Shown here piece after piece: positions 42,685 through 45,398 of a stretch of DNA of 64,000 nucleotides. The notes beneath the pieces are model-generated. The model worked only from the letters and a program-made list of their open reading frames with translations. It did no database searches and was not told the DNA's origin. Position 1 is the first letter of the stretch; each line of letters begins with the position of its first letter. The stretch lies in assembly GCA_964504535.1 (NCBI GenBank), contig CAZDED010000008.1:12673-76672 (forward strand). The letters run 5' to 3'. The position numbers and the translations under genes are program-made. The DNA is from an uncultured Gammaproteobacteria bacterium (GTDB lineage: Bacteria; Patescibacteriota; Microgenomatia; Levybacterales; GWA1-39-11).

Positions 42685-44220
42685 TTATGCGCCCGTTTCA
42701 ACATATCCAGGAAAAAAGTCTGATTTTATCTGTCTTTTTTTAACTCTCAAATCTCTGAGCATTTTTTCAAAATTTTGCACCATCAACTGAGGTCCGGAGA
42801 TATAAAAAACTCGATTCGAAAAATCCGGTATAGCTTTTTTAATCATTTCCGTATCTATATGTCCTGTCAGTCCTGACCAATCGGATGGAATTTTACTTTT
42901 GTCAGTCAAAACATAGAATGTCTTAACACCAAGGTTTCTTGCCCGCTCAAGCTCTTCTTTAAATACGATATCCTCAACTCCTTTATTCGCATAAATTACG
43001 CATATATCTACCTGCTGCTTCCTTTCCACAATATCTTCAATCATGCTCCGAAATGGAGTTATCCCAATTCCTCCGGCTATAAAAACCAGAGGAATTTTTG
43101 TATTTTTTGGCAAAACGAAATCCCCGGCAAGACCGGTTGCAATTATCTTGTCGCCAGACTGAAGGTTGAAAAGAGCTTTTTTGTAACTACTTGATGGTTC
43201 ATAAAATTTTACAGCCATCAAAAGGTTCTCCTTTCTTCCAGACGCAATACTGAAATACCTTCTGTTTCCCCGGGTATCAGGAGAGGGATGAGGCAAGGTC
43301 CATTCAAAGTATTGCCCGGGAGTAAATTTGAGATTTTTGACTATGCCGAAATCATAGAGATAAGTATCAGTACTCAGTCTGGTTTTATTGTGAAGCGTAA
43401 GTGACAGTCTATATTTCGGGTTTACTAAAAATGAAAAAACATTTCCTGCAATTAGAGCCGTTTCCGGAGTAATTACAAAGCCCCCAAATCTTAATAAGGG
43501 AGTTGCGTAAAAAACCGCGACAATGGCAGCATATAGACGTTGGAATTTTATTGTAGTAGGAGAGGTGAGTGGCTCAGTTAGCATGATGAAAGCAAAGAAA
43601 AATAGCGCTGAGGAAAACAAACTTTGTTTCCATACGGTAAAAATGGAGCTAAAGGATCCACTATTTATAAAACTGCCTATACCACTTACGATAAGAAAAG
43701 TGACGATAAAAGTGAGAACAAGCTCTTCTCTTCTTATTTTTCTCATTACCAAAAAACCACCAACAAAAACAGGAATTATAAGTGCATTTGTTCCAATCCA
43801 CCAAATAGCTGAATAGTCAGGTACAAAATATCCAACTATAAGAACTGCAATAGCTGCTGGATTGAAAAGATGTCTTTTATCAATAGTTAAAAGATATTTA
43901 GATGCCATAGTAATTACCGATACTACAGCTAATGGTGCAAGACTTGAAGGGAAAGCTACCGGAAAAATAAGAGTCAGGATAAGTGCAGTCACAAATACGG
44001 ACTCAATGTTTGTGATTGCTTTAAATATCTTTGAGAAGATGTAATTTGATATATAACAAGAAACAACAGAGACTGCGGCCGTCATTAAAATATCAAACCC
44101 TTTATATGGAATATTCCCTAAAAATCCTAACACCGCACCGATCACAACCAAAAGGATAAGAACATATAGAACAAGCCTATACATTGTGATTTTATTAAGA
44201 AATAAATCTACGTATTTCAT
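42685..44220 (-). CDS. Membrane-integral oxidoreductase: N-terminal ~8-TM domain fused to an FNR-like FAD/NAD(P)H-binding reductase domain
   Basis: C-terminus has RRYFSIAS (RxYS FAD motif), GGIGITPFRS (NAD(P) motif) and a C-terminal GP motif. N-terminal polytopic domain contains an HLFNPAA motif. Confidence 0.6.
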   Translation of the reverse strand: MKYVDLFLNKITMYRLVLYVLILLVVIGAVLGFLGNIPYKGFDILMTAAVSVVSCYISNYIFSKIFKAITNIESVFVTALILTLIFPVAFPSSLAPLAVVSVITMASKYLLTIDKRHLFNPAAIAVLIVGYFVPDYSAIWWIGTNALIIPVFVGGFLVMRKIRREELVLTFIVTFLIVSGIGSFINSGSFSSIFTVWKQSLFSSALFFFAFIMLTEPLTSPTTIKFQRLYAAIVAVFYATPLLRFGGFVITPETALIAGNVFSFLVNPKYRLSLTLHNKTRLSTDTYLYDFGIVKNLKFTPGQYFEWTLPHPSPDTRGNRRYFSIASGRKENLLMAVKFYEPSSSYKKALFNLQSGDKIIATGLAGDFVLPKNTKIPLVFIAGGIGITPFRSMIEDIVERKQQVDICVIYANKGVEDIVFKEELERARNLGVKTFYVLTDKSKIPSDWSGLTGHIDTEMIKKAIPDFSNRVFYISGPQLMVQNFEKMLRDLRVKKRQIKSDFFPGYVETGA

Positions 44221-44223
44221 AAA

Positions 44224-44952
44224 TTAAAGATACTTTCGAAATCCTTCAGTCAAATATTCTTTACCATCACGTGAGATCATATATCCCTCCAGTCCATCCA
44301 TTGTATCTAAAAAATCAATTCCTTTCTTGCCCATAGCATACGCTGCTGTTGCAAGTCTGTCAGCTTCATATACATCCGGACCTATAACAGTAAGACTGGA
44401 AACTTCATTTGCCAGCTTCTTCTTTATGGGATCATAAATATGCATTCCGCGTTCGTAGATACCCGAGGTAGCTATCCCCACATTGGTCAAATGCAAAACT
44501 CCTTTAGTAGCAGTTGTATCTCTTGGATCCCTTATGCCAACTTTCCATTTCTGCCCATTTTTTAGTCCTCTAATATCAATATCTCCTCCAATCTCGATGT
44601 AGAAATTTTTATATCCTTTTTTTGACAGTCTCTTTGAAGCTTCTGAAATGGCATAACCCTTCACAAGACCCGATGGATCTACTATTCCCTCTACATGAAT
44701 GTCAAAATAGCCGTGTGTAATGCTTCTCGTCTCTTCACAAAGCCTAAAGATTTTTTTTACTTCAGGGCTAGCATCCTCTATACGGAGTTCCTTCCTGTTG
44801 ATCTTACTGATTTCACTTGTCCTTTTGTAGGTACTGAACATTTCGTCAACTTCGTGGAAATAATCCAATATTTCATCGATGTCTGAACCATCGCACTCGC
44901 CAAGCACCTCAATGGCAACACTCATACCCATGATTCCTTCTGTGACCTTCAT
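44224..44952 (-). CDS. apbE: FAD:protein FMN transferase (ApbE/Ftp family)
   Basis: ApbE motifs in order: IMGMSV, VDEMFSTY..SEISKIN, GYFDIHVEGIVDPSGLVKGYA, IGGDIDIRG, ATSGIYERG, IGPDVYEADRLATAAYAMG. Confidence 0.75.
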   Translation of the reverse strand: MKVTEGIMGMSVAIEVLGECDGSDIDEILDYFHEVDEMFSTYKRTSEISKINRKELRIEDASPEVKKIFRLCEETRSITHGYFDIHVEGIVDPSGLVKGYAISEASKRLSKKGYKNFYIEIGGDIDIRGLKNGQKWKVGIRDPRDTTATKGVLHLTNVGIATSGIYERGMHIYDPIKKKLANEVSSLTVIGPDVYEADRLATAAYAMGKKGIDFLDTMDGLEGYMISRDGKEYLTEGFRKYL

Positions 44953-45398
44953 TTTGCCTTAACTAAAGCTGTTCTTAACGATCTTGCAAAAGCGGGAGCA
45001 GAATCAGATGCACCAGTGACTATATCTACGTCAAAACTTTGTTTGTCTATCGCTTCCTGTCTGAGAATAATAAGCGCTTGTTTGTTTATTGCAATTGATG
45101 TGTGATTGTCATCAGGATACATCAACTCACTAACATCTGTTATCCTGCCACCCGCAATAACAACTTCCACCTGAAGGTCTCCATAAACTGCATCCTCAAT
45201 ACTTCCATCATATACCCCATCTCTGTATTTTGAGGAACTAACCTGCGCAGTTGGACTTACAGCAACAGTTGTGACCGTTGTTGGAGTAGGAACTTGAACA
45301 TTTATTTTTTCGTCATCAACTACATCCGGTGTGTTTTTAAAATAGGCGGCAAGAAGGATAATCAAAACAACTATTGATATCTGTAAGTATTTTCGCAT
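44949..45398 (-). CDS. Membrane-anchored FMN-binding domain protein (FMN_bind, flavinylation substrate)
   Basis: N-terminal TM; FMN_bind domain with C-terminal DIVTGASDSA flavinylation motif (D-x-x-T/S-G-A-S/T). Confidence 0.65.
   Translation of the reverse strand: MRKYLQISIVVLIILLAAYFKNTPDVVDDEKINVQVPTPTTVTTVAVSPTAQVSSSKYRDGVYDGSIEDAVYGDLQVEVVIAGGRITDVSELMYPDDNHTSIAINKQALIILRQEAIDKQSFDVDIVTGASDSAPAFARSLRTALVKAK

Follow-up and report, generated by a model that had tools for sequence, protein, structure and literature searches.

How can a protein that faces the outside of a cell receive a covalently bound flavin from an enzyme that carries no export signal, and what would the cell gain from such a protein? 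This question is raised by a locus of three genes at positions 42685–45398 of a 64,000-nucleotide stretch (the window) of contig CAZDED010000008.1, deposited under the name of an uncultured Gammaproteobacteria bacterium and placed by its GTDB lineage among the Levybacterales of the Patescibacteriota. An earlier note on this DNA had described the locus as a candidate module for extracytoplasmic flavinylation and electron transfer, composed of an FMN_bind domain protein, an ApbE-type transferase of flavin mononucleotide (FMN) and a membrane-bound reductase. Here, we report that the locus is a member of the published, bioinformatically defined NQR/RNF-like class and not a new arrangement, and that it probably represents a stand-alone, flavin-based transmembrane electron-transfer system equipped with its own maturation enzyme.

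The locus is a member of the NQR/RNF-like class

Three co-directional open reading frames (ORFs) of the minus strand were confirmed in this interval, arranged head to tail and encoding proteins of 149 aa (45398..44949), 242 aa (44952..44224) and 511 aa (44220..42685); all features of the three genes described below lie on this strand. The genes had been described as joined by 4-bp overlaps, which holds for the FMN_bind/ApbE junction (ATGA), while the junction between ApbE and the reductase is a 3-nt spacer (TAA ttt ATG).

The system named 'NQR/RNF-like' was defined by Méheust et al. (2021, eLife; PMC8238504) through a key protein which combines an N-terminal PF03116 with a C-terminal PF00175 domain and is encoded in a flavinylation cluster, that is, no more than five genes away from one for ApbE (PF02424) or FMN_bind (PF04205). 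The authors reported 127 such clusters, chiefly from Actinobacteria and from the candidate phyla radiation, and called them 'partial NQR or RNF systems'. In the window both families are found in one 511-aa ORF, whose residues 1-268 fold like NqrB/RnfD and residues 269-511 like NqrF/FNR, and the ApbE and FMN_bind genes lie immediately upstream on the same strand. The same gene arrangement was seen in most of the 80 related loci that we fetched from species-representative genomes (many Patescibacteria classes and 14 Ktedonobacteria/Chloroflexia records). The class was further described in PMC10979944 and PMC11334425; Huang et al. (2024, mSystems), who modelled the complex of Ktedonobacter racemifer, pointed out that the flavinylation site of NqrB/RnfD is lost and suggested that the covalent flavin of the partner reaches the vacant flavin site (PMC11334425). 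Here too, the threonine is lost in the membrane domain and the site of the partner is kept in 68/68 sequences. The locus shares with the published class the design of the key protein, an NqrC/RnfG-like partner, an ApbE gene in the cluster, the lost threonine and a host from the candidate phyla radiation, and it differs in nothing essential, being a member from Levybacteria-like Patescibacteria. We found no experimental work on the class in the literature searched. The earlier note was right in recognizing a flavin-based electron-transfer module in which a cytoplasmic FNR domain would oxidise NAD(P)H and an exported partner is open to modification by ApbE, but it had missed that the membrane domain is of the NqrB/RnfD kind and that the class has been published.

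The membrane half of the reductase resembles NqrB and RnfD in profile and model

The 511-aa fusion protein (42685..44220) carries an N-terminal membrane domain (residues 1-268, 43417..44220), proposed to form the transmembrane flavin path. PF03116 (NQR2_RnfD_RnfE) was matched on this half at E 7.3e-14, and a profile of the N-terminal 268 residues matched RnfD (8ahx_D) at E 8.5e-6. An AlphaFold2 model of the domain (pLDDT 90.9) has about 10 helices, and when it was compared with the PDB by Foldseek the top 15 matches were all NqrB or RnfD chains, with a TM-score on the query of 0.65-0.76. Weak matches to urea transporters came only after these chains; they are to be expected, because the NqrB/RnfD fold is related to that of urea/ammonium transporters (PMC12174285). 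Judged by both profile and model, the membrane domain is a homologue of NqrB/RnfD and neither a generic membrane domain nor one of the ferric-reductase type. The earlier description of an approximately 8-helix domain fused to an FNR-type FAD/NAD(P)H domain therefore stands as to the fusion and its two motifs (RRYFS and GGIGITPFRS), but not as to the number of helices or the nature of the domain.

What the domain has lost is the residue to which FMN is attached in RnfD. The RnfD segment W..DGVTTATP aligns to the family segment WWvGtlallP, which has a hydrophobic residue at the position of the threonine, and neither Ser nor Thr occurs at the homologous covalent-FMN position in the profile alignment to 7zc6_D or in the column counts over 81 sequences. 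In our protein this segment corresponds to the loop S137-P150 (SAIWWIGTNALIIP, 43771..43812). Since the attachment threonine is missing, any flavin in the NqrB/RnfD-like domain would have to be non-covalent or supplied by the partner. The column counts also revealed a set of invariant buried polar residues, N71-x-E73-S74, E216, E253, K108 and H117, the last of which is the only invariant histidine of the domain.

A flavinylation site on the reductase itself was considered and rejected, as there is none at the RnfD position. A triplet S-A-[S/T] precedes the invariant WW in 66/81 relatives (S-A-I here, residues 137-139, 43804-43812); it faintly resembles the end of the ApbE motif, the rest of which is absent, and it is not homologous to the flavinylated threonine of RnfD.

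The reductase half keeps its FAD and NAD(P)H motifs

The C-terminal half (residues 269-511, 42685..43416, stop codon included) is an FNR-type domain. It was matched in Pfam by NAD_binding_1 (PF00175, E 4.4e-18) and FAD_binding_6 (PF00970, E 5.9e-5), its best sequence match in the PDB is the domain of NqrF (7qu3_A, E 7.7e-16) that binds flavin adenine dinucleotide (FAD), and its fold matches comprise flavohaemoglobin, NqrF and NOX dehydrogenase domains. The FAD motif RRYFS (43249..43263), the NAD(P)H motif GGIGITPFRS (43045..43074) and the C-terminal DFFPGY vary little or not at all among 54 homologues, and the mean column identity of the reductase is 65%. The concern that the protein might be a pseudogene of a ferric reductase with a disrupted NAD site was not borne out, given that both motifs, for FAD and for NAD, are unbroken and so strongly conserved. 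FNR domains dominate the fold matches of the full-length 511-aa AlphaFold2 model (pLDDT 88.3, pTM 0.80), and a Pfam scan found no ferredoxin (2Fe-2S) domain on the fusion protein.

The FMN_bind partner is predicted to face outwards

The first gene (44949..45398) encodes an NqrC/RnfG-like FMN_bind protein of 149 aa, which by its reading frame, family profile and synteny is the presumed substrate of ApbE and extracytoplasmic electron carrier. It consists of MRK followed by a hydrophobic anchor, a linker of about 40 aa rich in P, T, S and V, and a C-terminal FMN_bind domain. The protein taken alone scored 18.9 bits with PF04205, below the cut-off of 22; members of its family, though, matched PF04205 in 24/24 cases (best E 3.8e-12), and the family profile matched 8p2a_A, an FMN-binding domain of solved structure, at E 1.6e-20, in an alignment that includes its SGAT site. 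The flavinylation motif D125-I-V-T-G-A-S131 (45006..45026) was read from the sequence, the family consensus and the alignment to 8p2a_A. S131, 18 residues before the C-terminus, is the predicted site of FMN attachment, and in all 68 partners 17-20 aa separate the residue predicted to be modified from the C-terminus. Their consensus is [DN]-x-[VI]-[ST]-G-A-[TS], with G in 67/68, A in 68/68 and T/S in 68/68, so the absence of an acceptor Ser or Thr, which would have spoken against a flavinylated protein, was not encountered.

The signal-anchor segment (residues 4-20, YLQISIVVLIILLAAYF, 45339..45389) has a hydropathy of 2.4 over 17 residues and a flank charge of +2 on its N side and -2, in an acidic stretch, on its C side. 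These features predict an N-in/C-out topology. The same positive-inside polarity, with MKK and a hydrophobic anchor, was seen in 61/67 partners, the linkers are P/T/S-rich throughout the family (26-130 aa), and two variant partners (loci L058 and L073) carry true lipoprotein signals with the lipobox VAGC in place of the anchor. The note's account of a membrane-anchored FMN_bind protein with the flavinylation motif DIVTGASDSA agrees with the anchor and the motif described here.

The three genes recur together without other NQR or RNF subunits

More than 5000 homologues of the reductase were found in the database (E ≤ 1e-5); the best 120 of them measure approximately 500-530 aa, nearly all have both domains on record, and the named ones belong to Levybacteria or Patescibacteria. 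When the N-domain was searched against the representatives of 50%-identity clusters, 250 clusters were matched at E ≤ 1e-30, and six peptide patterns led to 156 confirmed relatives. The Ktedonobacteria loci are direct homologues with 41-45% identity.

Among the 80 loci, an FMN_bind homologue lies directly upstream of ApbE or of the reductase in 66, and ApbE is present in 68. The order FMN_bind, ApbE, reductase on one strand was found in about 55/80 loci of both Patescibacteria and Ktedonobacteria, with a spacing of mostly -4 to +10 nt between FMN_bind and ApbE. The same three genes in the same order in so many loci make a combination far beyond chance. Clustering of all ORFs in the 80 loci gave these three core genes and no fourth conserved one; no family of RnfA/E, NqrD/E (PF02508), NqrA/RnfC, RnfB or full NqrF was conserved there, and no other NQR/RNF subunit was present among the 30 window genes scanned between 30.3 and 54.9 kb. 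With neither a further subunit among the window genes scanned nor a fourth conserved gene in the relatives, the system looks stand-alone. No NCBIfam model reached its cut-off for any of the three proteins.

Seven of the loci (L001, L002, L015, L048, L058, L067 and L073) come from metagenome-assembled genomes titled 'uncultured Gammaproteobacteria bacterium', although they are syntenic with our cluster or up to 74% identical to it. The Gammaproteobacteria labels of these records are probably wrong.

The ApbE transferase lacks a leader throughout the family

The second gene (44224..44952) encodes a compact, leaderless ApbE/Ftp FAD:protein FMN transferase of 242 aa, matched by PF02424 at E 4e-42 (145 bits against a cut-off of 25.6). 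The family motifs claimed for it were recovered: the stretches ATSG-Y-E, H-I-x-DP and AD-x-x-AT align to ApbE of V. cholerae (6nxi_A) and FmnB of Listeria (7esa_A), and we take them to have the catalytic roles generally assigned to the conserved stretches of ApbE. The N-terminal Sec or lipoprotein signal, which is typical though not universal for characterised extracytoplasmic ApbE enzymes, is absent. Residue 4 pairs with residue 25 of FmnB, which marks the beginning of the mature domain, and the first strand of the ApbE domain stands at the N-terminus of our protein.

The earlier note had pointed to this absence as an oddity, with the presumed substrate being outside the membrane, and had suggested that an alternative GTG or TTG start upstream might restore a signal. 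Such a start is impossible: an in-frame TAA stands 6 nt (two codons) upstream of the ATG, therefore no longer form of ApbE can be made. The oddity itself was confirmed and holds across the family. The ApbE ORF begins with MK(Q/E)T..(I/L)MGMP in approximately 57 loci, in which no upstream in-frame stretch able to supply a signal peptide was found; a single one has a short hydrophobic run upstream of ApbE, without a usable start codon. The 120 closest database homologues of ApbE, which come from several calling pipelines, have no leader, no fusion partner and no domain besides ApbE that could provide either, and their lengths range from 193 to 272 aa (nearly all 233-261). A second type of ApbE, of about 290 aa, which occurs in variant loci, is also leaderless. 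As far as sequence can tell, the conflict between a leaderless ApbE and an exported partner is real and family-wide. It was not discussed for the NQR/RNF-like class in the papers examined, those of Méheust et al. (2021) and Huang et al. (2024) included.

One conceivable remedy, a fused FMN_bind-ApbE protein made by stop-codon read-through or frameshifting, which would hold ApbE on the outside, was unsupported. The two genes are out of frame with each other in the window, their relative frames are distributed over 27/16/12 loci with no in-frame excess, and no fused FMN_bind-ApbE protein occurs among the 120 closest homologues of ApbE. No second, exported ApbE gene, and no second FMN_bind gene, was found within the window.

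We see two ways out of the conflict: either the partner is flavinylated in the cytoplasm before its export, or ApbE is exported by a route that we do not recognise. We favour the former, and because ApbE is leaderless across the whole family, flavinylation of the small FMN_bind protein would most probably be cytoplasmic and precede export. Short peptide tags can serve ApbE as substrates, and Sec is able to export a domain after its biotinylation. An ApbE stripped of its leader acted on truncated NqrC within the cytoplasm of E. coli, and Klebsiella pneumoniae has cytosolic ApbE enzymes whose substrates are cytosolic too (PMC12052999). More tentatively, and with a likelihood that we set somewhat below even, we propose for the class as a whole that the leaderless ApbE, translated from the same message right after its substrate, flavinylates the Ser/Thr before export and that the tail so modified passes through the membrane afterwards.

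A complete genome of Ktedonobacteria bacterium brp13 (AP024096.1) contains three paralogous reductase/FMN_bind loci (L026, L032 and L061), only one of which has an adjacent ApbE gene; one transferase may therefore serve several systems.

Proposed path of electrons and alternative explanations

In the path that we propose, the cytoplasmic FNR-type domain, to judge from its motifs, would oxidise NAD(P)H and reduce its own FAD. The electrons would then cross the membrane via the fused NqrB/RnfD-like domain, a role suggested by homology, with a cofactor content that we deduce from the known flavins of its relatives and the loss of the threonine. On the outer face, where its topology and motif would place it with FMN bound covalently to Ser131, the partner would receive the electrons and pass them to an extracytoplasmic acceptor. 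It would probably be docked on the NqrB/RnfD-like domain, as in the published AlphaFold-multimer model of the Ktedonobacter homologue. ApbE, by its family membership and synteny, is expected to transfer FMN from FAD to Ser131. In RnfD/NqrB riboflavin is located near the cytoplasmic face and the covalent FMN near the outer or periplasmic face, and the electrons pass from FMN(G/C) to FMN(D/B) and to riboflavin (PMC12174285). This geometry fits an outward path from FAD through the riboflavin site to the FMN of the partner.

Three points weigh against this interpretation. A leaderless ApbE conflicts with a simple picture of extracytoplasmic flavinylation; no terminal acceptor gene emerged as conserved from the ORF clustering of the 80 loci; and the direction of electron flow, the cofactor content and the acceptor are inferred for the NQR/RNF-like class as a whole. 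The first of them would disappear if the system were entirely cytoplasmic, with the FMN_bind domain facing inwards, being flavinylated by the cytoplasmic ApbE and serving as an electron shuttle that links the FNR domain to the membrane domain on its cytoplasmic face; the Klebsiella enzymes and their substrates offer a precedent for cytosolic flavinylation (PMC12052999). It is, however, difficult to reconcile such an arrangement with the MKK-plus-anchor start and positive-inside polarity of 61/67 partners, with their P/T/S-rich linkers of 26-130 aa or with the VAGC lipoprotein signals of L058 and L073. The homologous NqrC and RnfG are periplasmic (PMC12174285), and the complex modelled by Huang et al. 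(2024) has the FMN_bind domain outside, so we regard an inward-facing partner as very unlikely. Somewhat less improbable, but still unlikely, is the idea that the same parts form a minimal two-subunit ion pump in which the NqrB/RnfD-like domain couples electron transfer to Na+ or H+, or that they work backwards, using the gradient to reduce NAD(P)+ with electrons from an external donor. RnfD/NqrB, with its urea/ammonium-transporter fold, is the proposed ion path of RNF/NQR (PMC12174285; also our fold matches), and the invariant polar residues buried in the domain would suit such a role. On the other hand, the Na+ site of NQR is made of backbone carbonyls, NqrD/E or RnfA/E, which have no counterpart here, also take part in the published coupling mechanisms, and what has been proposed for the class is a simple one-way transfer (PMC8238504, PMC11334425).

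The ties of all three proteins to NQR/RNF (NqrB/RnfD, NqrF and NqrC/RnfG, plus ApbE), together with the term that Méheust et al. chose, 'partial NQR or RNF systems' (PMC8238504), could also mean that the genes are a fragment of a canonical RNF/NQR pump with its other subunits encoded elsewhere, or its decaying remnant. A remnant would hardly be expected to remain full-length, strongly conserved (65% mean column identity) and as widespread as 250 clusters at 50% identity. Moreover, the minimal trio recurs without RnfA/E/B/C or NqrA/D/E in the 80 loci, as in the 30 window genes, and the fusion lacks the 2Fe-2S ferredoxin domain by which NqrF feeds NqrD/E as well as the threonine of NqrB/RnfD; we consider this origin highly improbable. 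The least credible possibility, to which we give almost no weight, is a haem protein of the ferric-reductase, NOX or MsrQ type fused to an FNR domain, in which electrons would travel on two b-haems. It could appeal to a weak match of NAD_binding_6 (20.1 bits, below the cut-off of 22.2) and to SpNOX among the fold matches, which is there mainly via its dehydrogenase domain. But Pfam gave no match to PF01794 or to any other ferric-reductase family, and the membrane domain matches NqrB/RnfD only, by profile and by fold. Two haems need four histidines, and as H117 is the single invariant one, the two-haem mechanism of ferric reductases and NOX is excluded and haem-based transfer was rejected. We thus retain the outward transfer of electrons through a stand-alone NQR/RNF-like system as the preferred explanation.

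Comparison with known electron-transfer systems

The locus has in common with Na+-NQR and RNF the NqrB/RnfD fold, an FNR domain that is nearest to NqrF, an NqrC/RnfG-like partner with the same type of motif, and maturation by ApbE. These complexes, however, consist of six proteins, in contrast to two here: the 2Fe-2S unit of NqrD/E or RnfA/E, NqrA/RnfC, RnfB and the ferredoxin domain on the NqrF-like part have no counterpart in the locus. The covalent FMN site of their B/D domain is likewise missing, and ApbE is leaderless here. Whereas NQR and RNF loop the electrons back to a cytoplasmic or quinone acceptor, the proposed flow in our system is one-way and outward.

The earlier note had likened the locus to the Listeria FmnB/PplA system. 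At the level of logic the comparison is valid: in the extracellular electron transfer of Listeria monocytogenes (Ndh2, EetA/B, demethylmenaquinone (DMK), FmnB and PplA) electrons from cytoplasmic NADH also reach an ApbE-flavinylated FMN_bind protein on the surface of a monoderm cell. It does not extend to the components, since neither Ndh2 (a type II NADH dehydrogenase) nor EetA/B nor a quinone component is present here, and the neighbouring genes differ from the set Ndh2, EetA, EetB, DmkA/B, PplA and FmnB that marks a Listeria-type locus. Furthermore, PplA is a two-domain lipoprotein and FmnB an exported lipoprotein depending on FAD export (PMC9973259), while the partner described here has a single FMN_bind domain held by a helical signal anchor and its ApbE has no leader. 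The MsrQ-like and NOX-type reductases from flavinylation clusters of Actinobacteria are alike in combining a membrane domain with an FNR-type domain beside FMN_bind and ApbE; in these, the membrane is crossed by two b-haems on four histidines, whereas our protein has the RnfD/NqrB fold and one invariant histidine.

Neighbouring genes in the window and in related loci

Promoter and terminator scans gave signals at background level only. The neighbours of the trio in the window are a heavy-metal ATPase, a polysaccharide deacetylase, orphans and a GIY-YIG protein. An ORF of 113 aa (42338-42679, minus strand) begins 5 nt past the stop codon of the reductase and may therefore be co-transcribed with it. 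It has two CxxC pairs, resembling a zinc ribbon, and a tail rich in Lys and Glu; it matched no model of Pfam or NCBIfam, and homologues were found only in the 3 closest loci. On the opposite strand, an orphan of 171 aa (41833-42348, plus strand) converges on this ORF with an 11-nt overlap and overlaps the polysaccharide deacetylase gene by 4 nt. The orphan has a signal peptide, a predicted mature N-terminal histidine (LYA|HTSGG) and a C-terminal anchor. We considered this secreted protein as a metal-binding acceptor but dropped the idea, given that Pfam and NCBIfam gave no match to it and that its homologues number only 5 among 5.8 billion proteins.

The ATPase is a P1B heavy-metal P-type ATPase of 596 aa (39051-40841, minus strand; TIGR01525, E 5e-141) in which no separate N-terminal metal-binding domain was detected; heavy-metal ATPases lie near the cluster in 6/80 related loci. 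Genes for a sortase (30911-31444, plus strand), an L,D-transpeptidase (34533-34997, minus strand) and an IS200-like Y1 transposase (53383-54054, minus strand) are present as well, and the first two are consistent with a monoderm envelope. An MsrB gene (54509-54892) lies approximately 9 kb from the trio.

In the 80 loci, the neighbours that recur most often, though at lower frequency than the core genes, are those for an extracytoplasmic function (ECF) sigma factor (17 loci, Pfam-confirmed) and for anti-sigma-like membrane proteins directly upstream of the trio. MsrA, MsrB, DoxX, DedA, MacB-type ABC genes and the mentioned heavy-metal ATPases are rarer. Some Paceibacteria-type loci (L057, 3526-10387; also L050, L075, L013 and L052) contain a same-strand run of an ECF sigma factor, a membrane anti-sigma-like protein, a small secreted protein, FMN_bind, ApbE, the reductase, MsrA, MsrB and DoxX, which hints at a regulon of envelope or oxidative stress.

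Implications for Patescibacteria and for flavoprotein maturation

The usual picture of Patescibacteria is that of fermenters which have no electron-transport chain. If electrons of NAD(P)H could be exported to the surface of the cell, these bacteria would gain one of three abilities: to re-oxidise NAD(P)H on external acceptors, to reduce metals or to defend the envelope against oxidants. As the NQR/RNF-like class has already been published, the main contribution of our locus is a clean member together with a set of data for comparison. Because Méheust et al. applied a signal-peptide filter, clusters of this kind were probably under-counted (127 clusters, compared to the 156 relatives and 250 clusters found here), and this may be the reason why the candidate phyla radiation seemed under-represented.

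What is new is that, across the class, the transferase lacks a leader and yet has an exported substrate, which turns attention to where and when flavinylation occurs. If flavinylation does precede export, it would constitute a new maturation route for extracytoplasmic flavoproteins. Such a route would require no FAD export machinery, which would suit minimal genomes, and it would mean that surveys based on signal peptides have under-counted surface flavinylation in Patescibacteria.

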